Below are positions 359 through 17,243 of a DNA stretch of 32,000 nucleotides, piece by piece. A program made the position numbers and the translations under genes. The notes under the pieces were generated by a model. That model had not been told where the DNA came from and made no database searches. It saw only the letters and a list, made by a program, of their open reading frames with translations. The DNA lies in the NCBI GenBank assembly GCA_021498095.1, contig JAIZWK010000001.1, forward strand, positions 1,590,001 through 1,622,000. Direction: 5' to 3'. The stretch is from Candidatus Harpocratesius repetitus. GTDB lineage: Archaea > Asgardarchaeota > Lokiarchaeia > Sigyniarchaeales > Promethearchaeaceae. The first letter of the stretch is position 1; each line of letters begins with the position of its first letter.

Positions 359-418
359 TAAGATTATAGATTGTTGCCAAACGCTCTACAATATTCCCTA
401 AAAGAGGTCTTAAATCCC
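353..418. repeat. Perfect 11-bp inverted repeat directly upstream of the transposase ATG
   Basis: GGGATTTAAGA (353-363) and TCTTAAATCCC (408-418) are exact reverse complements. The ATG is at 419. Confidence 0.6.
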
Positions 419-2125
419 ATGATTAATAATACGGAGCTCTTAAAAGAATTTACGGATTTCATCAATCTTTTTGATCAACCATCAAAACAGGCAAAAATCC
501 CCCATTCTTCTTCAGAAGTCCTAAATAGAATTGGTTTAACCCAAATAACTGCCATTCTTACAAATTCAGACACTGCATTTGCTCATCAGCTCTTAAAATC
601 AATTTCAACTTTTTTTTTATCCATTCTTAAATCCATTGCCGATACTGAAGATCCTAAGCGCACATTAGAGCAAATCTTAAAGAAATTCAATCCAGATCAA
701 CCAGCAAACTTACTTTCTACAAGTAGATCTTGTGTTCAAGCTCACATTCCACAAATGACAAAAAGTCAACTTGACGACCATTTGGAGCGTGAATATAAGA
801 AAGAATTGAAGATATTAGATGATTATCATGCAAAATCTAAGTCTGTAGCTCTTGCGATTGATATGACGCACGAAAAAGTCTCCACGAAGTATAAAAATAA
901 TCAACATTCATACGTTAGAATCGGACAACGGAAAGTATGGGAGACAAGCTTTAATTACTCAGCCATATATGATATTACTCATCAAAAGTTCTTGGGATTT
1001 AAGCATTTCAATGAACACAAAGTTGCAAACACAAATAAAAACCTTCAGCCATGGATTCTTCATTTACAAAATAAAATATCCGCTGTAAAAGAGGCAAAGT
1101 GTCAAGTTGAATTGATTGAAGCCGATAGGGGTTATTATAACTCTGAATTTTTTGCACTTTCTTATTTAGGAAAGATGCGGGGGTTTGACGTACCGTCTGA
1201 GTTTATCCGCTGTAATGTACCAACTAAGTTTACTGCAGGAAAAGAAGAATCTATATGGAATTTTCTGATTGATGAACAATCTAATCAAGTTTCTTTACAA
1301 TCTATGCAGTTAAACCATTATTGTCCGCCGAAACTTCGAGATTTATGCCGTAAATATAATGTTCCTTATGAAGATGGATATTATAAGATTCCTGTAGCCC
1401 AGGTTGTTTTAATAGATGAATATAAAAAAGGAAAATCCAGATCATTTGAATCTATAAAAAATGAAGCTTTTTCAATCCAAAATAGATTGCTTTCTATTCG
1501 GGAGCAGTTAAAACTCGCTGAAGATAAGTATTTCAAATTCCAACAAGCGACTAAAAAAAATCCACGCCGACTCAAATACAGGAAAGCCAAACGACGGAAA
1601 AAATTCAGCAATACTGAGGAAGAACGACTTTATCGCCTCTGTTATTCACTCTATGATCACAAAATTCGTTTGAAAGAGAAAAAGAATAAATTAATTCATG
1701 CTGTCACCTTCTTTACCATCTCGATTGCACCAGGAGAAGATCCTACGAAGTTGAACGGTAAATTTATCAAGTTTGCAAAGGACTATCATGAACGATGGGG
1801 GATTGAAAATGGTTTTCGAGATACGAAATACCAGTTTTTACATAAGAGTCGTTCCCAAAAATCTACACGACGACAATTTTATTGGATCGCAGGATTAGAA
1901 CTGTATAATCAATGGCAGCGACATAAACTGCTGGATCTTTTAGTACAAGAACGGGATCGCGTTCACAATATTGTTCCGTGGAATTCTCGACGTCGACATA
2001 TCCGAAAAAAACTAGAGAAAATGAGCCGTACAAAATGGTCTGCCAAGTTCTATTTGCTACGTTTGTGGGAAACTGGGCTTAATTTATGTGCTAAATCCAT
2101 TTTAGATCTAGGAGATAAAAGTTAA
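371..2125 (+). CDS. DDE transposase, IS4 superfamily (ISH3-like); likely start ATG 419
   Basis: Catalytic motifs are present: LAID (D1), ADRGYY (D2) and YHERWGIENGFRDTK (Y-x2-R-x3-E-x6-K signature), with a long insertion between D2 and E. Confidence 0.9.
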   Translation: MLPNALQYSLKEVLNPMINNTELLKEFTDFINLFDQPSKQAKIPHSSSEVLNRIGLTQITAILTNSDTAFAHQLLKSISTFFLSILKSIADTEDPKRTLEQILKKFNPDQPANLLSTSRSCVQAHIPQMTKSQLDDHLEREYKKELKILDDYHAKSKSVALAIDMTHEKVSTKYKNNQHSYVRIGQRKVWETSFNYSAIYDITHQKFLGFKHFNEHKVANTNKNLQPWILHLQNKISAVKEAKCQVELIEADRGYYNSEFFALSYLGKMRGFDVPSEFIRCNVPTKFTAGKEESIWNFLIDEQSNQVSLQSMQLNHYCPPKLRDLCRKYNVPYEDGYYKIPVAQVVLIDEYKKGKSRSFESIKNEAFSIQNRLLSIREQLKLAEDKYFKFQQATKKNPRRLKYRKAKRRKKFSNTEEERLYRLCYSLYDHKIRLKEKKNKLIHAVTFFTISIAPGEDPTKLNGKFIKFAKDYHERWGIENGFRDTKYQFLHKSRSQKSTRRQFYWIAGLELYNQWQRHKLLDLLVQERDRVHNIVPWNSRRRHIRKKLEKMSRTKWSAKFYLLRLWETGLNLCAKSILDLGDKS

Positions 2126-2128
2126 AAA

Positions 2129-3499
2129 GTGAAAGAAGTAAAAAAACCAATTCAAAAAGAAGAAAGAAATTCTGATTATCTTTTTGGGAATTACGTAAAT
2201 CCACAAGAAACTTTGGATATCTGGGAAAATAATCAATTTACCCCTAATTTATTACAAAAAAAGAAATTACAAATTAGTAAGAACCATTTATGGTTGTCTG
2301 AGCGAATATTAGAATTATGGGTGAAATTGGAAAACATTTTCATCAAAAATACTTTGATCACAAATTATCAATTTCAAAGTCAAAGGTATTATGAAACAAG
2401 AGTTCCAAAATCTGAAGTACAAGAATATAATGAATGGAGAAAATCCCTTGATATAAAAGGACTTTTTTCAGATGAAGAAATTCAAGTCTTAGAAAATTTA
2501 TTATATTGGATTAAACGAAGAGCAGAAAATTATGGAATGGGATTAGAATATGAATTTGAAATACTTCCTTATCTAAAATCTCAAAAATTTACCAAATCTC
2601 TTTGGATTGCTTCACAATTTTTAGAAATTCAAAGATATTTAATTCGATGTTTATACTATATAACAGAACAAGATTATACAATTCAACGAGCATTTCCAGG
2701 TAAACCCGATTTTATTTGTCTTGATATTAGGGAATATCAAAAATACCTTACTCGTATTTCTATTCATCACGGTTTACGAATTCACACATTCAAACTAATT
2801 GTTGAAGGGAAAACTGAAGAAGTATTAATTCAAAAATATATTGATACTTTCTGGCATTCCTCATGGGCAAAAGTTATCAATATGAGAGGAGTAGACAATT
2901 ATTCCCCCTATGAGCAAGTTTTCAGGGAAGTAAATGATACATATTATTGGTATTTACTCGATTTTGATAACGGGCAACACGAAGAAGAATTCAAAGATAT
3001 TTCTAATAAAACATGGTTTTACCCCGATTTTATTACAGAATTCTTTACTCCTGATGAAATAATTGCTTCCCTAAATAAATTATTAATAGACAAAAATATA
3101 GAACAAGATCGGATTGATTATTTTGAACAAAGACTAAAAATCTTATTGGAAAAGCTTAAAAGGATTATATCAAATTCTAAAGAAGGCTTTGAATTAGTAA
3201 TAACAGAATTTATCTTTGATGATCAAAGTTTAAAGAAGATAATCTTTCCAAATTATTCTAAATGGAAAACTAAATTTCAATTGCTTAAGAAAGGTATCAA
3301 AAAAACTCTAAAAAATCTACTAAATAAACAACTTTCGTTATATTTAGAACCTTGTTTTATTAGAATTGTTAATAATCGCCATGTAAGAAACAAAAAATTT
3401 GATGAAAAGATGAATTCATTTCTAAAGTATTGCGATAGTTTTTTAGCGGTTAATTGGATGCAACAAGCATCAAAACAAAATAAAAAGAGCAATTCTTGA
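2129..3499 (+). CDS. TOPRIM-domain protein (OLD/nuclease-type TOPRIM), probably 5'-truncated by the IS
   Basis: Contains FKLIVEGKTEE (conserved E), VINMRGVDN and YLLDFDNG (DxD). The GTG start lies only 3 nt after the transposase stop. Confidence 0.6.
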   Translation: MKEVKKPIQKEERNSDYLFGNYVNPQETLDIWENNQFTPNLLQKKKLQISKNHLWLSERILELWVKLENIFIKNTLITNYQFQSQRYYETRVPKSEVQEYNEWRKSLDIKGLFSDEEIQVLENLLYWIKRRAENYGMGLEYEFEILPYLKSQKFTKSLWIASQFLEIQRYLIRCLYYITEQDYTIQRAFPGKPDFICLDIREYQKYLTRISIHHGLRIHTFKLIVEGKTEEVLIQKYIDTFWHSSWAKVINMRGVDNYSPYEQVFREVNDTYYWYLLDFDNGQHEEEFKDISNKTWFYPDFITEFFTPDEIIASLNKLLIDKNIEQDRIDYFEQRLKILLEKLKRIISNSKEGFELVITEFIFDDQSLKKIIFPNYSKWKTKFQLLKKGIKKTLKNLLNKQLSLYLEPCFIRIVNNRHVRNKKFDEKMNSFLKYCDSFLAVNWMQQASKQNKKSNS

Positions 3500-3556
3500 A
3501 CAGAAGTATATTGCAAATCACTTTAAACAAATGATTATTGATTTGATTACGAAATA

Positions 3557-4115
3557 ATGGTGAGTTCTGATTTGAAAAAATATAAAGTTCATGAATTTTC
3601 AAAATTCAAGCTTTCAAAGAATTCAAATCAATTTCCTTTTATTGTATGCCCAAAAAAGAATGAAATTCTCTCATCTTGGATTGCGAGATTAGCAGAAGCT
3701 AACTTTTCTTCCTTCTCCTACTTTTTGAATAATTTGTATCTCACTGAGAAAGATCTTCTTCTCAAAAATGATAATCGTCCAAATTTTTCAAATGTGGACA
3801 TAAATACTCAATGTCCTCCACAAATTATAAATATTCTTTCCGAAAAAACAGGAATTAAGAAAAATGAGATAGAATTCCTAACTATGAATTCATGAGATGA
3901 GTCCATTCCATCAAAATTGAAAATAAGTTTTAAATCAAGAGTATTTGGTTCCATTCGATACTGTCCTTTATGTTTGAAAGAAGAAATTCCCTACATCAAA
4001 AAAGAATGGGCTGCTTCATTTAATACCATTTGTCAAAAGCATATGGTTTATCTCCACAATTTTTGCCCCAATCCGGAATGCAATAGACCAATATATATTT
4101 CTAAGAAAAATCATG
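3557..4115 (+). pseudogene. tniQ: TniQ/TnsD-family gene, interrupted by an in-frame TGA (3893-3895) and truncated at about 4115
   Basis: N-terminal FPFIVCPKKNEILSSWIARLAEAN and Zn-binding RYCPLCL..W....CQKH..L...CPNPEC are TniQ hallmarks. ORFs 3557..3895 and 3917..4246 are in the same frame, reading LTMNS*DESIPSKLK across the stop. Confidence 0.8.
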
Positions 4116-4357
4116 ACACTGATAATATTGAACCCTTCTCCCTTTCCGTTTATGAGTGCCATATACTCCGACGACAGCAGAGCGACATTCTGGGCACAAA
4201 ACAGGTGTTATATATAGTAATTCATCCCTTCTATCTTCGAAATTAACGTATGATGGCTCGAATAATGGAGGGTATTCCTTTTTAGGGCGTCCTACCATAG
4301 GATAACACATGATCGACACGATTTAAACATTTCCAAAATATCGGTTTGCGAACTGAC
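4101..4357 (-). mobile_element. Truncated IS: N-terminal Zn-ribbon fragment of a transposase (IS1/IS6/IS1595-like); likely start ATG 4298
   Basis: The sequence CPECRSAVVGVYGTHKRKGRRVQYYQC is the CPxC...G..QxYxC ribbon typical of these transposases. It ends right after the ribbon with no DDE core. A possible outer end lies near 4357 (GTCAGTTCGCAAA on the minus strand), unverified. Confidence 0.55.
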
Positions 4358-4787
4358 TTGAAATAGATGATTAAGAAGGTCTACGTTTTCATCCTAAATT
4401 TCAACGAGATTGCCAAAAATAATTCTTTGAAAGATGATTTAGGAATAATTTAAAAAATAGGGATTCTCTTAATTGATCCTTTATCTTTAAAAATAGTCAA
4501 AATGGGATATATTCCTTAAAAAAATTCTAAGGGCTTCTTAATATTCCGACCTAAAATTTACTTAATGCTTAACCGGTTATGAATTACTCGAAAATCATCA
4601 TTTCGCTGCCGCTGGGTGTTTTTCTGTAGGTGGTTACATGGAACGTGTGGCTGGAGTTCGGGCGGCTGGTGCCGTTTTTCGGGGTGCCGGAAACCGTTAT
4701 CATGCTGGTTTTTATCATGCTGGTCTGCGGGAATAAGGTAGGAATTAATGATTAGATCAAAGCTTAACAGATATCATTTGATTTTTT

Positions 4788-5135
4788 TCAATAATCTTCG
4801 ATCAAATCTTTCCAAATTTCGCATTCTTTCCGCTTTCCGCAGGAAAAACACGGGCCATCGGTCCAGAAATAGGATTTCGATTTCTGCCGCCGTACGTTCC
4901 CATTCGCCAAATGGAGTTTTGGTATAACTGCCAGCACCGGTAGACGATTTTTGGGGCATTGGCAACCTGTCGGTTCAATACTTCCTTGCTTGGGAAGAGA
5001 ATAGGAGGTTTTTCCGCACGATTCATTGATACATTTGGCGTAGCGTTTATGCTGACGGGTCTTGAATAAATATATTTCATCACTGCAGGCAGGACAATCG
5101 CCTAGGTATGTTTGAGCATACATGGTATAATTCAA
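4788..5135 (-). CDS. Small stand-alone Zn-ribbon protein resembling type IA topoisomerase C-terminal Zn-ribbon repeats; likely start ATG 5123
   Basis: CPAC...KRYAKC...C..SYSLPKQGSIEPT.C.CP...PVL resembles the TopA C-terminal ribbon pattern. A further CFSC...C follows. Confidence 0.6.
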   Translation of the reverse strand: MNYTMYAQTYLGDCPACSDEIYLFKTRQHKRYAKCINESCGKTSYSLPKQGSIEPTGCQCPKNRLPVLAVIPKLHLANGNVRRQKSKSYFWTDGPCFSCGKRKECEIWKDLIEDY

Positions 5136-5429
5136 GATATTGGTTGATTTTAAAATCGAAAAATGTTGGATTCCTATCTGAAAACCATAGATTTATTTGA
5201 GATATCTTTCCAATGATATACTGTAAAGGCGGGCGCTTCAGTATTATTTTGTCTTTTTGGATACCACTGAATTTTTGTAAACTTGCGGATTTCGGTGGAT
5301 GATTACACCTATTTTTAATTTAGGTTTTTCTTTTAGGGGCGATTTGCCCTTCTGGAGCGCTACCTTTACTCTTCCTTATGATAAGTATGTGAAATAAAAT
5401 TCCTTTAAAATCGAAATATTGAAATTCAA

Positions 5430-7217
5430 ATGGGTTTGGTTAAACAAAGTTTTAAGGAAGAATGTATTATTGATAAAAATGTGGTGTCGATTTATCCGGA
5501 AAGAGATGAATCAAAACTATACCAAGACAGAGTTTATTGTAATAAGTGTGGAAATTTATTGGGTTATTTTAAAAAAGATAATCCCAAATATAAAAAAGAT
5601 AAAATTATTTGCCTTGCTTGTGAAAATTTGTATGTTATCAAAAAAGAAATTGTTTTAGATTATTTGGAATATGAAAAATTTCTAACAGAAAAAATCTTTC
5701 AAATTTTTTTGGAATTTAATGATCAAAAACGATGCATTAAAACAATTCTAAATCTCCGAGAAACGCAAGGAAGTTATTATGATCAAAATTTTTCAACAGA
5801 ACCATCTGTTACAGCAACAGGGGGAATAGTAATTAGTATAAATTATTTGATTTTGATGGATTTGGCAATTGGGTTGTTTTTAGAAAATTATATTAATGTA
5901 AATACTTCCCAAAATGGCTTTGATGCTTCAGAATTTGCTAAAATAATTCATAAATATCAAAAAATATTTCAACAAATCTATTCGATTAAGCAAAACAAAT
6001 CATGTATGATAAAGATAAGCGATGATTATTATAATTTTAATTACACGTTCTCAGATGAATATATTCCATCATTGGAACAATTTGGTCTTACAAGGCGCAA
6101 CCTTAACTCTGAAGAGAATTCTTCGAAAATTATGAAAATCGCAGAGGAATTAGAAGACAGGGATAATATAACTCATAATTTATACTTGGTTTCGATTATG
6201 CTACGCGGTGCAATCTCTATAAATTTTCCTGAAAGAAGCGCAAATGTATTTTCTTTTGATCAATTTGATGATTTTATCAAAAAACTTATCCATGATTTTA
6301 TTGCATATATGGAATATAAATATAAGGATAAAGTTGGAAAAACACAATCTGATTTAGCAAATAACCAAAATTTCTTTATTTCACTTTCTTTGAACGATTT
6401 CTTCTTAGATTTCAAAGATCACATTTTAAAATCTCATCCAATAAATTCCAATTTAACCGATGAATCAATTAAGGAAATTTTTGAAAAAATAAAACGAGCA
6501 TTTATTTCTTCTAAATATAATAACATTATGCCCCCTATTTTCGTTTGTAATATTTTCGACTCTAAAATTTATTTTGGTCCAAATTCTTTGTTTTTTTACC
6601 GCTCTTTATTAGAGGCTTCAATTGAATGGCTAAAAATTAAATCCCATTTTGATGAATGGTGTGATAATAGATTTTTTGAAAAAATTTTTGAAATTCTTAA
6701 ATCTTGCGGGATTAACTGCTACGATGACAGCCTCCCTAATCCTTTTTTACTTAGAGAAATTAAAAATAAGAAAAATGATGGATTCGAAATTGATATATAC
6801 GGAAGAAAAGATGATATTCTATTTCTTTTTGAGCTGAAATCTTTTAGACCTTCGCCCTTTTTTGATTCTATTGTTCATAGAAAATCTCGTTTTAATAGAT
6901 GCGATCACTTCGAGGCTCAAATTTTTAATCCTAATAAAGCTTATAATTTTTGGCAAAACATCTCTTTGAAATCTTTATCTGATCCAAATGGTTTTTGGAA
7001 TCTTAATCTTCGAAAAAAAAATCATAAAACAGGCAAATTTGAATCAATTAGGATAAAATTTAAGCACAATTTTCCGCCAAAATTTATAGTTCCAATTTTT
7101 GTAAATCAGCTAAGTGAATTGCCAAACAGTAAAAATTATAAAATTAATTTGGTTATTCAATCAGAATTGAGATTTTTTCTTCAAAATCAAAAATTATGGA
7201 AAAAATATAGATTGTAA
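5430..7217 (+). CDS. Hypothetical protein with an N-terminal Zn finger and a C-terminal PD-(D/E)xK (NERD-like) nuclease domain
   Basis: CNKC...CLAC lies near the N-terminus. FEIDIYGRKDDILFLFELKS fits the ID...ExK nuclease core. The DNA is very AT-rich. Confidence 0.6.
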   Translation: MGLVKQSFKEECIIDKNVVSIYPERDESKLYQDRVYCNKCGNLLGYFKKDNPKYKKDKIICLACENLYVIKKEIVLDYLEYEKFLTEKIFQIFLEFNDQKRCIKTILNLRETQGSYYDQNFSTEPSVTATGGIVISINYLILMDLAIGLFLENYINVNTSQNGFDASEFAKIIHKYQKIFQQIYSIKQNKSCMIKISDDYYNFNYTFSDEYIPSLEQFGLTRRNLNSEENSSKIMKIAEELEDRDNITHNLYLVSIMLRGAISINFPERSANVFSFDQFDDFIKKLIHDFIAYMEYKYKDKVGKTQSDLANNQNFFISLSLNDFFLDFKDHILKSHPINSNLTDESIKEIFEKIKRAFISSKYNNIMPPIFVCNIFDSKIYFGPNSLFFYRSLLEASIEWLKIKSHFDEWCDNRFFEKIFEILKSCGINCYDDSLPNPFLLREIKNKKNDGFEIDIYGRKDDILFLFELKSFRPSPFFDSIVHRKSRFNRCDHFEAQIFNPNKAYNFWQNISLKSLSDPNGFWNLNLRKKNHKTGKFESIRIKFKHNFPPKFIVPIFVNQLSELPNSKNYKINLVIQSELRFFLQNQKLWKKYRL

Positions 7218-7230
7218 ATTATTCAAAATC

Positions 7231-7255
7231 AATTCAGAATTCTTGAATTTTTTTT
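7231..7255 (+). terminator. Possible terminator between convergent genes
   Basis: A near-palindrome AATTCAGAATTCTTGAATT ends in a T8 run (7248-7255), just after the 7217 stop. Confidence 0.3.
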
Positions 7256-8682
7256 AAAAGGTGATCACGAACATCTCAAACTCATCAAGCCACCATTGCA
7301 CCGCTTCCTGTCGATTTTCATCCACTTCCTCCGATTTACGCGCCAGATCCCAGCAATCTTGAAAATCCGACTCCGAACCTTCATGATGTGCCAACCCTTC
7401 GATTTCTTGTTTCAGTGTGTTTTTTAATTCTAGCAGAGCTTGGGAGGGTTGTTCGTGCATCATTTTCATGCGGGCTTGGATGAGGGCGGTCATGAATCTC
7501 TGCTTGAGATCTTCTTTCCAATCCATTTGATTATTTTCTATTTTCTGATTAAATTTCTCAAAATGGGTGCTTGGTAATGATTCAAGATTATTTTCTAATG
7601 TTTGGTTGTTATATGAGTTGTTATTTCCAGTATGTTCATCTCGGCTTTTATTATCGTTATTTGCTCTATTAATTTCATTCGTTATATGTTCATCTATGTT
7701 GTTGTAATATGGTTTATCCAGATTTTCTATTTCTTCTAAGTCGTTTGGTATTTCATCTGTGGTTTGAAAAAAATCTTCATCTAAAAAATTTAAAACCTCA
7801 TCATTATGAAATTGAAATTCCGGTTGGTTGTCTGCGGGCAGTGAATTGCTCTCGCCCTCATGTTTGGGATAAATCGGAAGATGGGTTTGAATATCTTGAA
7901 AAATATTTTCTTCTGTCTCATTTTCTTCTACGCCTTGATCTGGTAGATTTTTGTTTTTGATTTGATGATTTTGATTAAGCCGATATTCCGAAAGCATTTT
8001 TTTGGTTTTTGCGGTGGTGACATATCCTGTTAAATCTACTCCCGAACCTCCGGCAAATGTGGTCTGGTCTAAATAACTTGTGCGCTCCAATTGATTGATC
8101 CACTCTCTGCACTTCTCTGTTTGGTTTTGGGGGGGATTTGATGAGTGCGCAGATAATCGTAGTTCTTTCCAACAGTTCATTCAACAGAGTGGTGGAAGAT
8201 AAAACAGAATAATTGTCTAATACTGAATCCAAGTGTTCCAGAAAATTATGCAGAATGGGAATTAAATCATTTTGGCCGCTGAAATCAAACTCCAGATAAT
8301 TGCTCGGGGTATTAGTGCTTGATGGTCTGGTTGATTGATTAGATAATTGAATTGCTCCATTTGATCCATTTATTCTGTTTATTCTATTCATCTCGTTTAT
8401 CTCATTTGTTTCGTCTTTTTCATCTTTTTGTTCTTTTTGTTCTTTTTGATTAAGTTCTTCAATTTTTGCTCTAAAACGGAAAATGTAAGGAAAACGGATT
8501 GAAGCCCGATAAACCATGCAATCAAATTCCCGCAGGCTCTGAAGCACCTTTTCTTGATAAGATGCTTTTCGGGTGGCTTTATTAAAAGTATTGGTATATG
8601 ATTGATCGATATTGAGAAGATTATGGAGAATTTTGAGAGTTTGGGAATTCTGAGTGCGGTAGGCAAAAATATCTTGTAGCAT
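7254..8682 (-). pseudogene. Orphan gene split into overlapping ORFs 7975..8682 and 7254..8180, probably by a frameshift at a G7 tract (8129-8135)
   Basis: Removing one G gives one frame of 1428 nt (475 aa) reading ...CALIKSPQNQTEKCREWINQLER.... The same frame extends upstream through an in-frame TAG (8752-8754) to an ATG at 8775. No family was recognised. The protein has acidic and Asn-rich low-complexity stretches. Confidence 0.5.
8357..8449. repeat. Degenerate 9-bp tandem repeat within the orphan gene (QKE/NEI/NRI tripeptides)
   Basis: TCTTTTTCA-TCTTTTTGT-TCTTTTTGT-TCTTTTTGA at 8414-8449, plus six more degenerate 9-mers at 8357-8410. Confidence 0.6.
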
Positions 8683-9733: not shown

Positions 9734-9786
9734 ATTAGAAAGTATAAAACATTTTAATTATTATCAAAACATTTTATATTTCTAAT
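9734..9786 (+). promoter_or_regulatory. Candidate ArsR operator overlapping a TATA box
   Basis: Imperfect inverted repeat ATTAGAAAGTATAAAACATTTT (9734-9755), 10-bp spacer, then AAAACATTTTATATTTCTAAT (9766-9786). TTTATA at 9773-9778 is 23-28 nt before ATG 9801. GAAAGT repeats occur at 9713, 9722 and 9738. Confidence 0.55.
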
Positions 9787-9800
9787 CTGTAAATGTTACT

Positions 9801-10148
9801 ATGGAATCTCGAATCGATGAATTTCTGAAATCTTGTAATAAATCCCAATCATCGCCGGATTTTATGGTCCAATATCAAAATTTAGCTAAAAAAATTACTC
9901 AAAGCAAGGATTTTATCCAAGAATTAAAGCGACATAGTGCTTTGGCAAATAAATATCGCCTCTTAATTTATCATCTCCTTAAAGATGGCGAACAATGCAA
10001 TTGTTCACTGGCAAGGATTTTAGGATTGTCAGAAGGGTCAATCACCCATCATATAAAGAAGTTGGAAGATGCTGGTTTGATTGTAGGCCGCAATCGGGGT
10101 CATTTTACCATTTACTATACGGCTGCTAATCTAAAAAAGAGTCTTTAA
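9801..10148 (+). CDS. arsR: ArsR/SmtB-family transcriptional regulator
   Basis: ALANKYRLLIYHLL..GEQCNCSLARILGLSEGSITHHIKKLEDAGLI is an ArsR HTH. The CNC sits where the ELCVC metal(loid) site occurs. Confidence 0.9.
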   Translation: MESRIDEFLKSCNKSQSSPDFMVQYQNLAKKITQSKDFIQELKRHSALANKYRLLIYHLLKDGEQCNCSLARILGLSEGSITHHIKKLEDAGLIVGRNRGHFTIYYTAANLKKSL

Positions 10149-10206
10149 GAATAATGGATTGAAAGAAAAGGAAATCATTTTAATTTTTTTCAAAACGTTT
10201 TAATAA

Positions 10207-10608
10207 TTGCAAAACCTATTTTTAATTATGGGAAAAGTCGGATTTATTTTGTGTGTTTGCACTGGCGATTGCCCTGGTTTTGCAAGCATGAATGTATGGG
10301 ATTTGATTAACCAAGTACGCTTAGCGTTACCGGTAGAATGGGCAATTGTTCATCCGCAGTTGTGTGAAACTGATGGTGATCGATTTACTAAGAACTTATT
10401 GGAGCTAATTCGTCAAAATCAGTTGAAATATTTCATTGCAGGATGTTCTCCAAACATGCAACGTAAATTAATCGGTACTCATTTTAAAGAAGCAGGATTA
10501 AATTTTGAGGACTGGGTTATGCCTTTAGATGTACGAAATATGACTACAGATCAAGCTTTCGATGCCATTGAATCTCAATTAGAAAAATGGGTGAAAATTG
10601 ATGATTAA
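10207..10608 (+). CDS. Stand-alone HdrA N-terminal-like Fe-S module; likely start ATG 10228
   Basis: VGFILCVC...LC...IAGCSPNMQ...FKEAGLN...LDVR parallels the HdrA N-terminus (GVFxCxC...C...AACSP...AGLN...NIRE). There is no FAD-binding part. Confidence 0.75.
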   Translation: MQNLFLIMGKVGFILCVCTGDCPGFASMNVWDLINQVRLALPVEWAIVHPQLCETDGDRFTKNLLELIRQNQLKYFIAGCSPNMQRKLIGTHFKEAGLNFEDWVMPLDVRNMTTDQAFDAIESQLEKWVKIDD

Positions 10609-10924
10609 TTCTGATAAAAATAGAATTCCAAAGCAAATTCATCGATTTATGGGCGTGGATCGAAAAGACATTGACTGGTTTCCCATAATTGATTTTAATA
10701 AATGTAATAATTGTGGTGATTGTGTTCAATTTTGCGCCCATGGTGTATTTAATATGGAAAATGGAGTATTAATTGTTCAGAATCCAAAAAATTGTGTTGT
10801 GTTCTGTCAGGCATGTTTAAAAATGTGTCCAAAAGATGCATTAATATTTCAAGAGAAAAAGAAAGTTTTAGCCCAGATTAGGCAAATAAAATCGCAACAA
10901 AAACAATCCATAGATAATTATTGA
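10598..10924 (+). CDS. 2x[4Fe-4S] ferredoxin-family protein; likely start ATG 10601
   Basis: Contains IDWFPIID..CNNCGDCVQFC and CVVFCQACLKMCP. Confidence 0.9.
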   Translation: MMINSDKNRIPKQIHRFMGVDRKDIDWFPIIDFNKCNNCGDCVQFCAHGVFNMENGVLIVQNPKNCVVFCQACLKMCPKDALIFQEKKKVLAQIRQIKSQQKQSIDNY

Positions 10925-10954
10925 TAGACTTTAGAAAATAATTTAAAATAATAT

Positions 10955-11902
10955 TTGGTGAAATATATGAATGTAAAAATTGTTTTGATTCCTTGTATGG
11001 GATGCGAAAAGAACATAGGAAAGATCGGCACTTTGGCAGCTCTTTCTTTGGAAAAATCAAAAAAATTTCCTTTCCTAAGACTTAATCCATCTATCACTCA
11101 AATTGCTGCTGGAGAATATACTTCATTTTCTCCAGAAACATTGATTATTGCACTGAATTGCTGTAACGTTCGATGTTCAACAAAGATACTAAATCAAAAG
11201 TCTATAAAACCTCACTATTTGATAAATATCTCTAAATATTTGAAGGATATTAATATTCCAAAAGGTGATTATTCAATTCATGAGTTACTTAAAGATTCTT
11301 CAGTTTCGATTATTACCGAATGCCTTTCAAACGAAATTGAAGAATATGTTATTCAATTTACACATAAACATGAAGAAAATTCAGTTATCAAAGTAAATGA
11401 ACCTTCAAATTCTAAGACTTCATTCACATTCACACCAAATTATTCTAAAATGCTCGAATTTACTTTTTCAAAATTTAAATTTCAAGTTCCCATAAATCCA
11501 AATCGACTTTTCTTTAATTGGAATGATGCATGGGCTTACTATTTGGGTGAAGGAAAAGTGGTGATTGGTATTACAGATTATCTGCAAAAAAATCTATCTG
11601 ATATTCTCATTTGTGAATTTAACGAAATAGGCACTAATATTAGTCAATTTGAAGCCGTTGCAGAGATGGAATCAAGCAAGACTGTTAATGAAGTATTAAG
11701 TCCTTTCAGTGGTAAAATAATTGCTGTAAATACTAAGTTAGAAGAAGCTCCAGAACTAATAAATGAAGATCCTTATAATAATGGATGGATAGTTGTTTTA
11801 GAATGTAATAATTTCGAAGAAGAATCATCAGAATTAATGTCTTCTGAAGAATACTTTAATTTTATGAAGGAAAAAATTGAACAAGAAGGTATTTACCAAT
11901 GA
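10955..11902 (+). CDS. Fusion of an N-terminal divergent DGC (Cys-rich) domain and a C-terminal GcvH-like lipoyl-carrier domain; likely start ATG 10967
   Basis: The N-terminus has IPCMGC...ALNCCNVRCSTK, a DGC variant. The C-terminus has IGITDY.Q..L.DI...EMESSKTV.EV.SPFSG.I..VN..LEEAPELINEDPYNNGWI, the GcvH signature, with the lipoyl Lys at codon 11678-11680. Confidence 0.85.
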   Translation: MVKYMNVKIVLIPCMGCEKNIGKIGTLAALSLEKSKKFPFLRLNPSITQIAAGEYTSFSPETLIIALNCCNVRCSTKILNQKSIKPHYLINISKYLKDINIPKGDYSIHELLKDSSVSIITECLSNEIEEYVIQFTHKHEENSVIKVNEPSNSKTSFTFTPNYSKMLEFTFSKFKFQVPINPNRLFFNWNDAWAYYLGEGKVVIGITDYLQKNLSDILICEFNEIGTNISQFEAVAEMESSKTVNEVLSPFSGKIIAVNTKLEEAPELINEDPYNNGWIVVLECNNFEEESSELMSSEEYFNFMKEKIEQEGIYQ

Positions 11903-12321
11903 ATGGAAGGAAAAAAGTGAACATTTTACCTTGTAGCGGAATAGGAAAAACCTTAGGTACGTTAAGCCGATGGACTGCATTTGAAATTGTTGAACATTTA
12001 TGTCCTAAGAAAACTCAATTATTGTGTTTAGCGCGGGCTGTAGTAGGAGATAATGAAATCCAGTCGAAGATTTTAGATAATTATAATATTACTTTAGATG
12101 GTTGCCCTAAACAATGTGCTAAAAAGAATATCGAATTAAAAGGTGGCGATGTCCAAAAGTCTTATTTAATGGCGCGATTCTTAATAAAAAATCGAGATCT
12201 CATTTATGATAAGAAAAATGTTATTGATCCTGGAGATGGCGCTTTAGAATTAGCCAAACGTATTGCACTACAAATTAGGCCAGTAATTGATAAGATTTTT
12301 GATCAAGGCGGTGCGATTTAA
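11899..12321 (+). CDS. DGC-domain (putative Zn-binding) protein
   Basis: Contains PCSG...LCLA...LDGCPKQCAKK. The start overlaps the upstream stop (ATGA). Confidence 0.9.
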   Translation: MNGRKKVNILPCSGIGKTLGTLSRWTAFEIVEHLCPKKTQLLCLARAVVGDNEIQSKILDNYNITLDGCPKQCAKKNIELKGGDVQKSYLMARFLIKNRDLIYDKKNVIDPGDGALELAKRIALQIRPVIDKIFDQGGAI

Positions 12322-12323
12322 AC

Positions 12324-12758
12324 ATGATTAAACCGAAATATGTTGGATTACTATCTTGCAGTGGAGAAGAAATACCTGAAGGAACCATTTCTCGTATTGC
12401 AACAAGGAAAGTTTTGCAGGAATTATTACCTGGACTAACTACAACTGTATGTGTGCCTTTGTTTTTGACAGGTGACGAACAAGAACGAGGTTTTGTGCTG
12501 AAATATCCATGCATTGCCATTGATGGATGTGAAAAAGCCTGTGTTACGAGAAATTTAAAATTACTCGGGAAAAAGCCATTTGCTGAAGTAAATTTATCGC
12601 AATTCTTTAATTCAGATGAACTTAAAGAAATCAAAGCCAGCAAACTTCATGATCGCTCTTGGAAAGATCATCCCTATACACAGCGTTTAGCTGAACATTT
12701 AGCTTCCTTAAGCGCTCAGAAATTGCACGAAATAAATTCATCTGAAGAAATCTTTTAA
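12324..12758 (+). CDS. DGC-domain (putative Zn-binding) protein
   Basis: Contains SCSG...TVCVP...IDGCEKAC. It starts 2 nt after the previous stop. Confidence 0.9.
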   Translation: MIKPKYVGLLSCSGEEIPEGTISRIATRKVLQELLPGLTTTVCVPLFLTGDEQERGFVLKYPCIAIDGCEKACVTRNLKLLGKKPFAEVNLSQFFNSDELKEIKASKLHDRSWKDHPYTQRLAEHLASLSAQKLHEINSSEEIF

Positions 12759-12783: not shown

Positions 12784-13464
12784 ATGGTAAATGAGATAGC
12801 AATTATTGGAGAAATTATTGGTTATGTAACTGCATTTATTATTGCTGCAGTAATCATGCGAAAAAAGCCATCTTATATTGGAAATCGGTATTTTGCAGCA
12901 AGTTTCATCCTATTCGGTACTTATTCTTTAGTAATGATGATATATGAATTTGGAATTTCAGAGATTGTTGTTCTTGTTCTTTTTTATCTTTCTTTGGTAA
13001 TATTAAATTATGCAACCGCGTTTTTTGTTATATCAATGCAGATTTTTATTTATAGCAAATCATGGTTAGAATCAAAAATCCCCAAGGTAGTTCTTGCTGG
13101 ATCTACCATTATTGCGATTATTTCTGTGGTTATGCCTGTAAAAGTAGAATCATTAGGTCCTGTACAAACAACTAAGAATTTAGTAGCACTTATTTCTATG
13201 GGAATTTGGCAGTATACATTATTAATTTATTCTCTTGTTAAAATATCGCAAGTTTTGAAAAATATTGAACAAACAAATAATTTAGTGAAGAAGAAAATCC
13301 AAAAATTATGGATCGCACAACTTATCGGTCTTATGGCGCCTACTGCTTCTGTAATTGGGAATATTTTACAAAATTATGTAATCGTTGCTTTGCTTCACAT
13401 TTTTTTGGCAAGCGCATTTATTCTTGTAGCTTTGGCTATTTTGGGTAAAAAGGATATCGAATAA
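12784..13464 (+). CDS. Integral membrane protein with about 7 TM helices and no cytoplasmic output domain
   Basis: Seven hydrophobic stretches counted by eye in 226 aa. Confidence 0.7.
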   Translation: MVNEIAIIGEIIGYVTAFIIAAVIMRKKPSYIGNRYFAASFILFGTYSLVMMIYEFGISEIVVLVLFYLSLVILNYATAFFVISMQIFIYSKSWLESKIPKVVLAGSTIIAIISVVMPVKVESLGPVQTTKNLVALISMGIWQYTLLIYSLVKISQVLKNIEQTNNLVKKKIQKLWIAQLIGLMAPTASVIGNILQNYVIVALLHIFLASAFILVALAILGKKDIE

Positions 13465-13638: not shown

Positions 13639-14964
13639 GTGAATCAGAAGATTATGCCTTCCCAAACACCTCTTCCTAAACAATATTTTTACACATTTCC
13701 GTGGCTTAATGGGAGCAGTGAAATCCTTCTTGAAGATATGGGTTTGTTATCACAATCTAATGAAGCCACTTCAGTGGTAAATATGATCAAGAAGTTGTTT
13801 ACAGAATTTCATAATTTAGATCAAGTTGAAAATGATTTAGAATATAGAATTACCGAATTTCTTAAACAATGTGCTGAATCTAAAGAGAAATTTACAACTT
13901 CCACTGATGATATTATTCATTTGGCAATGTATCCGCTTTTACAAATAATTCTATCTTTATTAGGCAATCGTATATTAGGTAATGCTATGGCAAATATCTA
14001 CGCTAAGCACTGCCAAGAAGAGTTAAGATCGCATTCAACTTCTAAACAGCATGGTTCGAGAAATAAATATAATGACTATCAGATTCAAAGTATTTGTCAT
14101 AATTTAGGCTTAGAGTGTCTAGTAACTCCAAGAAATATGATTGATCATATTATTTATCCATTTCAAATGGATTTCCAATCATATCTTTCAGTTGCTACAA
14201 AATTGACTGGAGATAGATGGAAACTGATAAATAGAATTTTCGTGAAAGGAAAAGTAAATTTAATTCGTGATGATGTAATTCTATTGCTCCGTGAGATGGT
14301 TAGAAATAAGACTAAACCAGATTATAAAGCAATAGATCCTGAATTGAAGAAGAAAATTGAAGATATACCAGAAATTAGTCAGATTCTTGAACGTGTGGAA
14401 AAAATAGTTGAACAAAACTCAAAGAAATTCACTTCTTCATTGTTTATTGCTGATGAAAAAATTGAATATGAATTATTTCCACCCTGTATGAAAATGATCT
14501 TATTTCGTGCTTCTCAAGGGGAAAATTTGTCTCACAATGAACGTTTAGCCATTGCATTTTATTTTCTAAACACAAATCACAGTATTGAAGAAACAGTTGA
14601 TATATTTAGAACCATTCCAGATTTTGATGAATCTATTGCACGATATCAAGTGGAATTTGCAGCAGGTTCAAGGGGAAAGGGGAAAAAATATAAAATGTAT
14701 AATTGCGCTAAATTACGAAGTTTTCGTCTTTGTAAAGCTGATGATCCAAAATTCGGAGATCGACTTTGTATACAAGGTGGAAAGCGAAAAGATGGCACTT
14801 TTCAACCAATCAAGAATCCAATTAATGATTATGTCTTCTGGAAAAAAGTTGAACTTCAAAGAATTCACAGAAGTCAGATTCCTACGACATTGGATGGTTC
14901 AAAAACTTCTCAAACTTCTCAAGATTCTGTATCTTCTGTACACTCTGAAAAAACTAAAAAATAG
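13639..14964 (+). CDS. priL: DNA primase large subunit
   Basis: The Fe-S domain FPPCM...GENLSHNERLAIA...PDFDESIARYQVE...Y...C..LRSF.LC is present, adjacent to priS. Confidence 0.92.
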   Translation: MNQKIMPSQTPLPKQYFYTFPWLNGSSEILLEDMGLLSQSNEATSVVNMIKKLFTEFHNLDQVENDLEYRITEFLKQCAESKEKFTTSTDDIIHLAMYPLLQIILSLLGNRILGNAMANIYAKHCQEELRSHSTSKQHGSRNKYNDYQIQSICHNLGLECLVTPRNMIDHIIYPFQMDFQSYLSVATKLTGDRWKLINRIFVKGKVNLIRDDVILLLREMVRNKTKPDYKAIDPELKKKIEDIPEISQILERVEKIVEQNSKKFTSSLFIADEKIEYELFPPCMKMILFRASQGENLSHNERLAIAFYFLNTNHSIEETVDIFRTIPDFDESIARYQVEFAAGSRGKGKKYKMYNCAKLRSFRLCKADDPKFGDRLCIQGGKRKDGTFQPIKNPINDYVFWKKVELQRIHRSQIPTTLDGSKTSQTSQDSVSSVHSEKTKK

Positions 14965-14977
14965 GGCGAGCTGTTCG

Positions 14978-16252
14978 ATGAATTTAACCCAATATTATCT
15001 ATATAAACTATTTCAAGCATATTATAAGGCTCATCTGAAGAATTATCCCACTATCAGTGATTTACCAAATAGAGAATTTGCCTTTATACGTTGGGATCAT
15101 CCTGGAATGCAACGTCATATTGGATATCCAAATTCTAACTTTTTATTGGATTATTTGGTAAAATATGCTCCACGACACAGTTATCGGAGTGCAACTATCT
15201 ATTCAACTCCATCAGCAGATAAAATGGAGCATAAAGGTTATTTAGGTTGTGATTTTGTCGTCGATATCGATTCTGATCACATTCCTACTTCTTGTCAACA
15301 TCGTCATAACTATGTCATTTGTAAAAATTGCGGAAAACTTCTCTTGGGAGATAAACCAGAAGAGTGTCCTGACTGCCATAGTAAAAAATTTAAAAAAATT
15401 GTCTGGATTTGCGATGAATGCTTAAATGTTTCAAAAGAACAAGTGCATCATTTGATTGATGGATTTTTATTAAAGGATTTTAATATTCCCCTTTCTGCTA
15501 TCAAATTGAATTTTTCTGGTCATCGAGGATATCATGTACGTATTGAATCTAAAGTTTTTCGCTCGCTTGATCAAGAAGAACGTCGTGAAATTGCAGATTA
15601 CGTTACAGGTCAAGGTTTTTCTTATAATATATGGAATTATAAGCCTGTTCAATCCAATATGTCTGGATTCCGTATTGATCAACCTGGTTGGCCAGGTAAG
15701 ATTGCTCGTGAGTTCTATAAAGTTCTTTCTCAAGGGAGTGATTATACTGAAAATATTTTTTCAAATCCTCGATATGGGAATCCTATTCGTTCTAATGTTT
15801 TAAGGATTTTAATTGAACGAAGAATAGATCTCATTAGAAAGCTTGAAAATAAAAACCCCATTTGGGGAATTCCTCATGTTGGACCTACTACATGGCATCG
15901 TATATTTGAAATTTTGCGAGATTTAATTAAAGCTGATATAGATGTAGTTGTTTCTATTGATGTTCATCGATTAATTCGTTTGGAAGGTTCAATTCATGGA
16001 AAAGCAGGGTTAAAGGTAGTTGATGTTCCTTATGAAAAATTGGATGAGTTTGATCCATTGACTGATGCATTGACCTTTCCAAAAGAGAGTACAAATAAAC
16101 TAACAATTAAGATTACTGCTCCTATCTGCCCTCCAATTCGAATAGGGAAAATAACATATGATAATTTTCAACCTGATGAAGAATATACTGTTCCCCTAAA
16201 TGTCGGATTGTTTTTACTTTGTAAAGATGTTGCGGAATTAATAAAAAACTAA
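14978..16252 (+). CDS. priS: DNA primase small (catalytic) subunit; start taken as ATG 14978 rather than the track's 14585, which overlaps priL
   Basis: Contains FVVDIDSDH (DxD), FSGHRGYHV and SIDVHRLIRLEGSIHGK, plus a Cys-rich Zn insert. Confidence 0.93.
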   Translation: MNLTQYYLYKLFQAYYKAHLKNYPTISDLPNREFAFIRWDHPGMQRHIGYPNSNFLLDYLVKYAPRHSYRSATIYSTPSADKMEHKGYLGCDFVVDIDSDHIPTSCQHRHNYVICKNCGKLLLGDKPEECPDCHSKKFKKIVWICDECLNVSKEQVHHLIDGFLLKDFNIPLSAIKLNFSGHRGYHVRIESKVFRSLDQEERREIADYVTGQGFSYNIWNYKPVQSNMSGFRIDQPGWPGKIAREFYKVLSQGSDYTENIFSNPRYGNPIRSNVLRILIERRIDLIRKLENKNPIWGIPHVGPTTWHRIFEILRDLIKADIDVVVSIDVHRLIRLEGSIHGKAGLKVVDVPYEKLDEFDPLTDALTFPKESTNKLTIKITAPICPPIRIGKITYDNFQPDEEYTVPLNVGLFLLCKDVAELIKN

Positions 16253-16367
16253 TAAAAATTGGCGAATTTAACCTATATTATAATTTATTCACCATTTACA
16301 AATTAATTTCAATACAGATCTTTAACACCTAAAGAAAATTGTATGTATTAAAATTGAAGAAATCAGG

Positions 16368-17243
16368 ATGAAAGAAATGGATGCCTTTACCCAAGAAAAA
16401 ATCTATACTAATTTACTTCGAATTTGGGAACGCGTGCATTCAAGCAAAAAAATAATAAAAATCAACAAAAAAGAAGAGTTTCTCTCTGGTATTCGAGAGT
16501 TGGGTAAAGCACTTATAAAACAATTAAGCGAAACTAAGAATTTCACAATACAATTAATCATTCAGAAAACTATAGATAATATCCGCTATATGGTGGCAGA
16601 TATTCTGGAAATACGTGCAGAAAAAATAACAAATTCTGCAAAAACTAATGAATTTGTGGAAGAATCACTCTTATTTCCATTTGAATTGCAATTTTATCAT
16701 CAATTACAACCTTCATTTCGTGGTTTTTTAAAATCAAAACAACAAATTCTTCAATCCTTTAATTTCAATGAAATTTTCTCGCCAAATAAATTGAAAGATT
16801 TTAAGGATAGTTCTCAAGATTTTGAAAATGATAATTTTATCCCAAATTATGAAGATGACTCGTTTATTGATTCAACAGAATCTATTTCTGAAGATATTAA
16901 TTCTTCACAATATTCTGTAAATAAGTCTGAATCAAACGATAATTCAATATCAAATAATAATTCATCAGATTCACTTCAAAAAGAGCAAAAATATTCTTAC
17001 GACACACAAATACTATCTTCCACCAAAGAATCTTCAAAAGACTTCCTTAAATCCGCTAGAGCTAAGTCAAAAATCCATTATCAAACGATTATTTCTAATT
17101 CTGAAATTTCCCCTTTTGTTGGTCAAGATCTTATTATTTATGGACCTTTAACAAAGGGTGAAATTGCTAGTATTCCTGAAAAAAATGCTCAGATTTTTCA
17201 AGGAGAAAATATGATCAAGCTTATTAGATCAAATCACAAATGA
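16368..17243 (+). CDS. gins51: GINS complex subunit (Gins51/GinS-type) with a long low-complexity linker
   Basis: Lies directly after priS, a conserved archaeal linkage. It has a helical N-terminal A domain and a C-terminal B domain with PFVGQD..IYGPLTKGEIASIPEKNA. Confidence 0.7.
   Translation: MKEMDAFTQEKIYTNLLRIWERVHSSKKIIKINKKEEFLSGIRELGKALIKQLSETKNFTIQLIIQKTIDNIRYMVADILEIRAEKITNSAKTNEFVEESLLFPFELQFYHQLQPSFRGFLKSKQQILQSFNFNEIFSPNKLKDFKDSSQDFENDNFIPNYEDDSFIDSTESISEDINSSQYSVNKSESNDNSISNNNSSDSLQKEQKYSYDTQILSSTKESSKDFLKSARAKSKIHYQTIISNSEISPFVGQDLIIYGPLTKGEIASIPEKNAQIFQGENMIKLIRSNHK

Follow-up and report, generated by a model that had tools for sequence, protein, structure and literature searches.

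In the sHdr–LbpA system of sulfur oxidation, a GcvH-like lipoyl carrier works outside glycine cleavage beside Hdr-related Fe–S proteins, and in the Lpd–DlaT–AhpD–AhpC pathway of Mycobacterium tuberculosis a protein-bound dihydrolipoyl group is the thiol reductant for defence proteins. Ferredoxin:thioredoxin reductase passes ferredoxin electrons through a [4Fe–4S] cluster beside reactive cysteines for two-electron disulfide reduction. Lipoic acid is also the textbook target of arsenite; we know of no described arsenic-resistance (ars) gene for a lipoyl carrier, a DGC protein or a protein resembling the N-terminal domain of HdrA. Here we characterize a cluster of six genes that encodes all three behind an ArsR-family regulator gene, at positions 9801–12758 of a 32,000-nucleotide (nt) stretch of the genome of Candidatus Harpocratesius repetitus (Promethearchaeaceae; GenBank assembly GCA_021498095.1, contig JAIZWK010000001.1, positions 1,590,001–1,622,000; hereafter the window, whose numbering is used unless stated otherwise). 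The five genes behind the regulator, here called the cassette, encode an HdrA-N-terminal-domain-like (HdrA-N-like) protein, a 2×[4Fe–4S] ferredoxin, a DGC::GcvH fusion and two further DGC proteins (DGC-A and DGC-B). We regard it as evenly balanced whether the cassette encodes a ferredoxin-fed thiol relay around a lipoyl arm that serves metalloid defence under the control of an As(III)/Sb(III)-type ArsR.

To collect relatives of the cassette, each prokaryotic species was represented by one genome; a pattern scan of these genomes gave 335 confirmed sites encoding a relative. The locus counts below refer to the best 80 of these sites, from other genomes, annotated with profiles from our own alignments; their flanking genes were clustered, representatives were scanned against Pfam and NCBIfam, and neighbours were counted within 8 kb. 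The cassette shares with sHdr–LbpA a GcvH-like lipoyl carrier outside glycine cleavage that lies beside Hdr-related Fe–S proteins and, in some relatives, an adjacent dedicated lipoate ligase. It differs in having the HdrA N-terminal domain alone (a free protein of 126 aa with no flavin-binding HdrA body), in a core without HdrB/C, TusA or DsrE, in a carrier fused to a DGC domain, and in regulators and neighbours that are of arsenic type rather than sulfur-oxidation genes; HdrB/HdrC (CCG), TusA and DsrE are all missing from the window, and among the recurrent neighbours only DsrE was found (four loci). In common with the Lpd–DlaT–AhpD–AhpC pathway, a dihydrolipoyl dehydrogenase gene is adjacent to the cassette in 25 of the 80 loci and an AhpD-like gene in a few, but the cassette carrier is not an E2 protein: an H-protein with a DGC fusion takes that place, its input is presumed to be ferredoxin and Fe–S proteins, and it is found in the setting of arsenic resistance, not of peroxide defence. 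Classical ars operons likewise have an ArsR with a CxC motif, many bacterial and Asgard cassettes are embedded in islands of this kind, and the cassette's small cysteine-rich proteins could act like the ArsD metallochaperone; unlike those operons, the window copy has no adjoining pump (Acr3/ArsB) or reductase gene. The proposed relay would follow the same concept as ferredoxin:thioredoxin reductase, a likeness of mechanism alone, drawn by analogy.

Organization and recurrence of the cassette

All six open reading frames (ORFs) are on the forward strand. The regulator gene arsR (9801–10148; 115 aa) is followed after a 79-bp gap by ORF2, which encodes the HdrA-N-like protein (10228–10608; 126 aa), and the ferredoxin gene (10601–10924; ~107 aa), the ATG of which overlaps the ORF2 stop by 8 bp. 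After a further 30–42 bp comes the DGC::GcvH fusion gene (10967–11902), which has a 4-bp ATGA overlap with the gene for DGC-A (11899–12321; 140 aa, PCSGIGK type); this is separated by 2 bp from the gene for DGC-B (12324–12758; 144 aa, SCSGEE type). The longest frames of three genes begin earlier (TTG at 10207 for ORF2, 10598 for the ferredoxin gene and TTG at 10955 for the fusion gene), and comparison with orthologues points to the ATG codons at 10228, 10601 and 10967, respectively, as the likely starts. An earlier note on this DNA, made from the sequence alone, had described six closely spaced, co-oriented genes with gaps of at most 79 bp and some overlaps, and both this layout and its domain calls for all six products were upheld, the latter by family searches (for ORF2, through matches to HdrA). 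Family scans of the window's proteins also agreed that gcvP/T/L, lipoate ligase, hdrB/C, arsC and acr3 are absent, and found no ars structural, glycine-cleavage, lipoate or hdrB/C gene in the rest of the window.

The gene order is conserved across two domains of life. The note had suggested looking for the same gene set in other genomes, and gene maps of the related loci show just this: an HdrA-N-like gene, a gene for a ferredoxin of ~100 aa (between ORF2 and the fusion gene in 61 of the 80 loci), the fusion gene (detected in 73 of 80) and then two DGC genes. Most exceptions to this order stem from contigs that are short or truncated (for example, L047, L061 and L097), and a few reflect crude gene calling. 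Asgard carriers among the 80 best loci include Lokiarchaeum ossiferum, other Promethearchaeota, Heimdall-, Jord- and Freyarchaeia; the others include Bathyarchaeia, many Acetobacterium and Eubacterium species, Clostridia, Sedimentibacter and Bacteroidota. Close relatives of the fusion have the same six-gene order in other Promethearchaeia contigs and the core without arsR in bacterial contigs. In the window's own order, strong stand-alone matches were found in 10 of the 61 genomes sampled, so the cassette is patchy and accessory. A word-index search with the fusion had returned 11 clusters and made the cassette look rare, a view that the genome pattern scan overturned. A look-up of expression records listed no RNA for the window locus or its fusion gene.

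Several loci depart from the common arrangement. In Eubacteriaceae bacterium ES2 (L085, 8662–13630 of that locus), the cassette is interrupted, with ~3.3 kb of DNA, arsA among it, between the fusion gene and the pair of DGC genes, and Eubacterium callanderi FD (L063 and L082) and Acetobacterium malicum DSM 4132 (L030 and L043) each have two cassette copies on different contigs. Candidatus Deferrimicrobium (L008/L009) has an expanded version with six DGC domains encoded in one direction, together with co-directional genes for DUF166, a ferredoxin–DUF169 fusion, a ResA-like thiol-disulfide oxidoreductase and DsbD_TM; no ArsR is encoded nearby, and a B12-binding radical SAM gene lies upstream. 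A record titled Candidatus Nanopelagicaceae bacterium (L051) is probably misbinned archaeal DNA, given that its gene map and its position in the fusion tree fall inside the Promethearchaeota group.

In agreement with the note, which knew of no description of the assembled system, a literature search from which most subscription journals were outside found no publication that describes the cassette or gives DGC a function; nearly all matches to 'DGC domain' were diguanylate cyclases. The lipoyl carrier treated in PMC3543383 is LarG, which differs from the carrier of the cassette.

Arsenic and redox genes around the cassette

An ArsR-family gene is present in 63 of the 80 loci. The ars structural genes encode LMWP-type ArsC (21 loci), ArsA (16), ArsP (15), Acr3/SBF (13), ArsF-family (8) and ArsD-like (6) proteins; at least one such gene occurs in 42 loci, and an ars structural gene or ArsR in 69. 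A true dihydrolipoyl dehydrogenase (TIGR01350, 535 bits versus a cut-off of 408.8) accounts for the 25 loci mentioned above, and lipoate-protein ligase LplA is encoded in 8. Other recurrent neighbours are DsbD_TM (18 loci), small thioredoxins (11–16), cysteine desulfurase (15) and DUF166 (10).

The window's ArsR matches HTH_5 (PF01022; 47.6 bits, cut-off 22) and NF033788 (57.9 bits, cut-off 55), and has its CxC motif (Cys66-Asn-Cys68) at α3; both cysteines, together with Cys12, are invariant in five aligned orthologues. A CxC at the position of the As(III) site is found in all 42 cassette-adjacent ArsR proteins (that of the window and 41 outside it, encoded within 900 bp of a cassette), many of which have no cysteine besides the CxC. 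These neighbour counts and the universal CxC of the adjacent regulators tie the cassette to metalloid sensing and lipoyl chemistry. The claim of the earlier note that this is a thiol-redox or metalloid system thus gains from the regulators and from the 42 loci with ars genes within 8 kb, and its remaining parts (the relay and its direction, the DGC cofactor and the binding of As(III) or sulfane sulfur) stay conjectural.

The redox neighbours may instead point to a general thiol or oxidative-stress relay, a reading that we consider unlikely. The cassette would then be a ferredoxin-driven counterpart of Lpd–lipoyl protein–AhpD–AhpC that feeds peroxiredoxin, AhpD-like or thioredoxin-like proteins; its ArsR would sense thiol or redox stress, and the ars linkage would reflect shared thiol systems. 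An AhpD-core CMD gene directly before the fusion gene in L012 and L013 (TIGR00778, 45.6 bits versus 27.8) and CMD genes in four more loci agree with such a role, as do the DsbD_TM and thioredoxin-type genes counted above, the ResA-like AhpC-TSA and DsbD_TM genes of the bacterial locus L008 and a ferredoxin-nitroreductase gene downstream in L010. Every adjacent regulator, however, has the As(III)-type CxC, the commonest specific neighbours are ArsC, ArsA, Acr3 and ArsP, and peroxiredoxin or AhpD genes occur in a small minority of loci. In anaerobes, moreover, ars islands commonly include thioredoxin and DsbD genes of their own.

Another set of neighbours would suit trafficking of sulfur, selenium or tellurium, in which the lipoyl arm, like LbpA, would carry sulfane sulfur or selenium species for processing by the DGC and Fe–S proteins. 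Genes for HesB-like 'CC/Se motif' proteins lie behind the cassette in L006, L012 and L013 (best score 33.7 bits, under the cut-off of 40), a HesB-like family that is unrelated by clustering occurs in 10 of the 80 loci, and cysteine desulfurase (the 15 loci above) is accompanied by rhodanese, DsrE and TauE genes in 4–6 loci each. In L006, a TDT-family tellurite-resistance/dicarboxylate transporter gene is divergent to arsR (TIGR00816, 290 bits versus 237), in a locus that also encodes an SBF-family protein far under the Acr3 cut-off. We rate this reading as distinctly unlikely: HdrB/C (CCG) and TusA are absent among the annotated recurrent neighbours, genes for sulfur trafficking occur less often than ars genes, arsenate reductases can have the rhodanese fold too, and the regulators have an As(III)-type site rather than the cysteine arrangement of persulfide sensors.

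A second lipoyl carrier fused to a DGC domain

The fusion protein consists of an N-terminal DGC domain (PF08859, 39 bits; cut-off 27), a linker and a C-terminal H-protein domain that matches GCV_H (PF01597) at E = 1.2 × 10−33. The lipoyl lysine is present in an ESSK motif in the window fusion and is kept in 73 of 74 fusions. In the DGC domain of the window fusion, Asn stands in place of the usual second cysteine, which 65 of 74 fusions possess, and an additional cysteine lies three residues past the first (CMGC), so that the count of four cysteines is retained in the clade to which the window belongs; the H-domain cysteine of 62 of 74 fusions is replaced by Ala in this clade.

The assembly is a single contig of 4.36 Mb, and the genome has a separate, canonical gcvT–gcvH–gcvPA operon 393 kb from the cluster; the H domain of the fusion is therefore a dedicated second lipoyl carrier, distinct from the glycine-cleavage H protein. 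The genome also encodes one dihydrolipoyl dehydrogenase above the equivalog cut-off, an LplA-like ligase beside BirA and three full-length HdrA-like ORFs, all away from the cluster. Of the outcomes that the note had named as damaging to its proposal, three that sequence comparison can address (genes that do not co-occur in other genomes, a cassette that sits with gcvP/T and an H domain that is the sole GcvH of the genome) were thus not borne out: the gene set recurs in unchanged order, gcvP and gcvT are absent among the recurrent neighbours of the 80 loci, and the canonical operon lies elsewhere. That the fusion is a plain second glycine-cleavage H protein with accessory genes, as its strong GCV_H match could imply, is extremely improbable and was already disfavoured, given this distribution of gcv genes, a TIGR00527 score (104.6 bits) below the equivalog cut-off (115.85) and the universal N-terminal fusion to DGC.

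The H domain is also at the edge of true GcvH models (NF002270, 117.8 bits versus a cut-off of 117), which, with the conserved lipoyl lysine, would be in keeping with a role in lipoyl repair or replacement. GcvH acts as a lipoyl relay in lipoyl assembly in Bacillus, and an inducible H paralogue might likewise be a lipoyl donor or relay, or a spare, that restores arsenic-damaged lipoyl enzymes, with the Fe–S and DGC proteins engaged in cofactor assembly. The eight loci with adjacent LplA are consistent with this, as are the 15–16 loci with cysteine desulfurase and a PF04060 Fe–S protein. However, the recurrent neighbours included no lipoyl amidotransferase, octanoyltransferase or lipoyl synthase, such a role would account neither for the fusion to DGC nor for the strict stoichiometry of five genes, and a canonical GcvH is already present in the genome; we consider this role highly improbable.

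Predicted structures of the DGC, HdrA-N-like and ferredoxin proteins

A profile search found that the three DGC domains of the cluster are the sole copies in the genome. DGC-A and DGC-B match PF08859 with 49.3 and 50 bits, respectively (cut-off 27), and in an alignment of each family Cys12, Cys43, Cys69 and Cys73 are invariant. The conserved cysteines follow strand 1 and strand 2 and form the motif D-G-C-x3-C, whereas the signatures differ (PCSGxGK in DGC-A and SCSGE in DGC-B). The model of DGC-A (predicted local distance difference test (pLDDT) score 95.2) has a flavodoxin-like α/β fold in which the four cysteines follow strands 1, 2 and 3. Attempts to place DGC in a solved structural family failed by every route taken. 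Foldseek gave no match in the PDB at E ≤ 0.001, and a profile search of PDB sequences gave nothing under E = 0.2; with VIA-align, the best match was an uncharacterised Wolinella protein (3pu6_A; Z = 9.2, root mean square deviation (rmsd) 2.9 Å over 115 residues), followed by generic flavodoxin-like folds with Z ≤ 8.

Complex modelling predicts that DGC-A pairs with DGC-B as a heterodimer, with the cysteine loops at the interface. The model scored 0.81 (best of three controls, 0.02), a mark that 58 of 80 solved complexes and 2 of 110 mismatched pairs attain; these counts hold only roughly here because our own alignments were used for the model. Repeated runs agreed in at least 97% of contacts, with a partner pLDDT of at least 84. 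The predicted interface is pseudo-symmetric, formed by residues 11–16, 41–46, 69–74 and 108–111 of both chains; as the first three stretches are the cysteine loops, the two four-cysteine sites would face each other.

ORF2 matched no Pfam or NCBIfam family in profile scans. Its product aligns by phmmer to residues 8–94 of HdrA of Methanospirillum (7bkb_A; E = 4.5 × 10−4), and the seven best PDB matches of its model (pLDDT 93.8) in Foldseek are all HdrA chains, from three complexes (E = 5 × 10−6 to 1.6 × 10−4, rmsd ~2.8 Å). ORF2 therefore has the fold of the HdrA N-terminal domain, and the earlier description of it as a free HdrA N-terminal module proved correct. The fold and the corresponding cysteine pattern—CxC after strand 1, Cys after strand 2 and G/A-C-S/T-P after strand 3—are shared with the HdrA N-terminal domain and MvhD (PDB 5odc, 7bkb and 8rvu). 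In contrast to these, ORF2 belongs to a separate small family and stands alone, ending after the N-terminal domain, without the thioredoxin-reductase-like body that binds flavin adenine dinucleotide (FAD) or the ferredoxin domains of HdrA (~650 aa). Cys9, Cys11, Cys46 and Cys73 are invariant across the family, and Cys15 is invariant in close relatives; this set is the presumed [4Fe–4S] site. The family comprises 111 representative clusters (E ≤ 0.001) among 1.84 billion proteins, and nearly all members are stand-alone proteins of 100–140 aa. A profile–profile comparison of DGC with the ORF2 family was not significant (probability 2.4%, E = 0.019), though the cysteine positions were aligned. 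The ferredoxin matches Fer4_10 (33.7 bits) and Fer4_9 (31.8 bits), both above cut-off, and has eight cysteines in CxxCxxCxxxC and Cx3CxxCxxxCP motifs.

A repeated promoter element

Both arsR and ORF2 have a palindromic 13-nt element, TCAAAAyrTTTTA, ~25–35 nt ahead of the start codon, each time with a weaker copy ~20 nt upstream of the main one. Before arsR (9746–9776, forward strand), the weaker copy is AAAACATTTTA (9746–9756) and the main copy TCAAAACATTTTA (9764–9776), which lies ~25 nt ahead of the ATG; before ORF2 (10172–10202, forward strand), the copies are AAATCATTTTA (10172–10182) and TCAAAACGTTTTA (10190–10202). An alignment showed that the element is kept at both sites in all five orthologous loci compared. 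We infer that it is a putative ArsR operator that overlaps the B recognition element (BRE)/TATA region of two archaeal promoters, and the second copy suggests that the five-gene operon has a promoter of its own, regulated together with that of arsR.

The strict pattern has 16 matches in the genome, where ~8 are expected from base composition, and this locus alone has the two-promoter arrangement; six other matches that were inspected showed nothing comparable. With one mismatch allowed, the window contains 12 matches versus 11.2 expected, and the strict pattern was not found upstream of the genome's acr3. On these grounds—no enrichment in the window, no comparable promoters elsewhere and absence before acr3—the element was rejected as a regulon marker. 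That acr3 (286.5 bits, above cut-off) forms a divergent pair with an ArsR-family gene (160 aa, CSC) at 2.066 Mb (C1:2065406–2067120). Just inside the coding start of this arsR, ~30 nt from the start codon, is an inverted repeat, ATTTTGATA-N3-TATCAAAAT, which shares a TCAAAA half-site with the cassette element, possibly by chance in AT-rich DNA.

A divergent lineage away from ars islands

In a maximum-likelihood tree of 73 fusion proteins, the window sequence, L025, L026 and L. ossiferum form a long-branched group (support 100/100) that lies apart from both the main Asgard and the bacterial groups. By this tree and the gene contexts, the window copy belongs to a divergent, fast-evolving Promethearchaeaceae lineage that has left the ars islands. 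The ArsR of this clade is encoded co-directionally with the cassette and has the third invariant cysteine (Cys12) in its N-terminal arm. The locus also lies away from ars pumps and reductases, between PCNA-side genes and priL–priS–gins, a synteny common to L011–L013. Occasional additions in the clade are the AhpD-core CMD gene before the fusion gene, the HesB-like 'CC/Se motif' gene after it and, in L006, the genes for the TDT-family transporter and the SBF-family protein.

In the window, the priL, priS and GINS genes lie downstream of the cluster at 13639–17243 (forward strand), and the order cassette–priL–priS–gins is repeated in L011, L012 and L013. The longest priS frame (14585–16252) overlaps priL by ~380 bp, so the true start of priS is probably later. 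Between DGC-B and priL, a gene that starts 25 bp past DGC-B (12784–13464, forward strand) encodes a protein of 226 aa for which several membrane helices are predicted and neither Pfam nor NCBIfam gave a family; it was rejected as a seventh member of the system because of this lack of a family and because related loci do not conserve it behind the cassette. Upstream of the cluster (371–8180) are four long ORFs (584, 456, 595 and 308 aa) without a Pfam family at E ≤ 1 × 10−4.

Proposed mechanism

The ferredoxin-fed relay for metalloid defence could work as follows, with the cofactors of ORF2 and the DGC proteins, the direction of electron flow, arsenic binding and operator function all presumed. 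Without a thiophilic metalloid, ArsR (Cys12, Cys66 and Cys68) would sit on the TCAAAAyrTTTTAAT elements before arsR and ORF2, and ligand binding would free it and de-repress the operon. The products would then form a small cytoplasmic relay, in which the ferredoxin, with its two [4Fe–4S] clusters, would pass low-potential electrons to the HdrA-N-like [4Fe–4S] protein and from there to the DGC-A/DGC-B heterodimer, where two four-cysteine sites would face each other. The heterodimer would then reduce the lipoyl disulfide of DGC::GcvH, and the relay would hold or cycle this dedicated carrier in the dithiol state without NAD(P)H. Two uses of the reduced carrier can be envisaged: the dihydrolipoyl arm and the cysteines of the fused DGC may capture As(III) or Sb(III) and hand it on, in mimicry of the classical target of arsenic, or the arm and the fused-DGC cysteine sites may give thiol reducing power to metalloid-handling or ars enzymes. 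Where bacteria encode an Lpd beside the cassette, electrons may also enter or leave this lipoyl arm by way of NAD(P)H.

Several points weigh against the metalloid-defence relay. No ars structural gene is present within 8 kb in 38 of the 80 loci, and none adjoins the cassette in the window, L025, L026 or L027, with the exception of an ArsC-like gene in L026; the genome's divergent arsR(CSC)–acr3 pair is 466 kb away and lacks the element. ArsR proteins of the CxC type can also answer to thiophilic metals other than metalloids, and the AT-rich element may be simply BRE/TATA promoter sequence. The thioredoxin, DsbD, AhpD-like, rhodanese, DsrE, cysteine desulfurase and HesB-like neighbours suit general thiol or sulfur chemistry equally. 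Finally, since DGC-A and DGC-B are paralogues, the complex score could partly mirror a general dimer tendency of the DGC fold, and the DGC sites could hold zinc, an Fe–S cluster or free thiols.

Implications

In its most specific form, which we hold to be possible though doubtful, the cassette would be a new metalloid defence of anaerobes, in which a dedicated, ferredoxin-reduced lipoyl carrier turns the dithiol chelation that underlies arsenic toxicity to the capture of As(III) or Sb(III) and passes it to pumps or modifying enzymes, and DGC-A/DGC-B would be a new Fe–S or metalloid-binding thiol module. If the proposal is true, the use of a lipoyl protein within arsenic defence would introduce a new principle of resistance. 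H-type lipoyl carriers, which serve in glycine cleavage, in sHdr sulfur oxidation and in the SirTM/GcvH-L stress system, would then have a fourth role, and the DGC domain (PF08859) and a free HdrA N-terminal module would each gain a first function. The carriers include cultured and partly genetically tractable acetogens (Acetobacterium and Eubacterium limosum/callanderi) as well as the cultured L. ossiferum, which makes the proposal directly testable. For the biology of Asgard archaea, the cassette represents a patchy accessory redox module common to them and bacteria, which one lineage has rewired and detached from ars genes.

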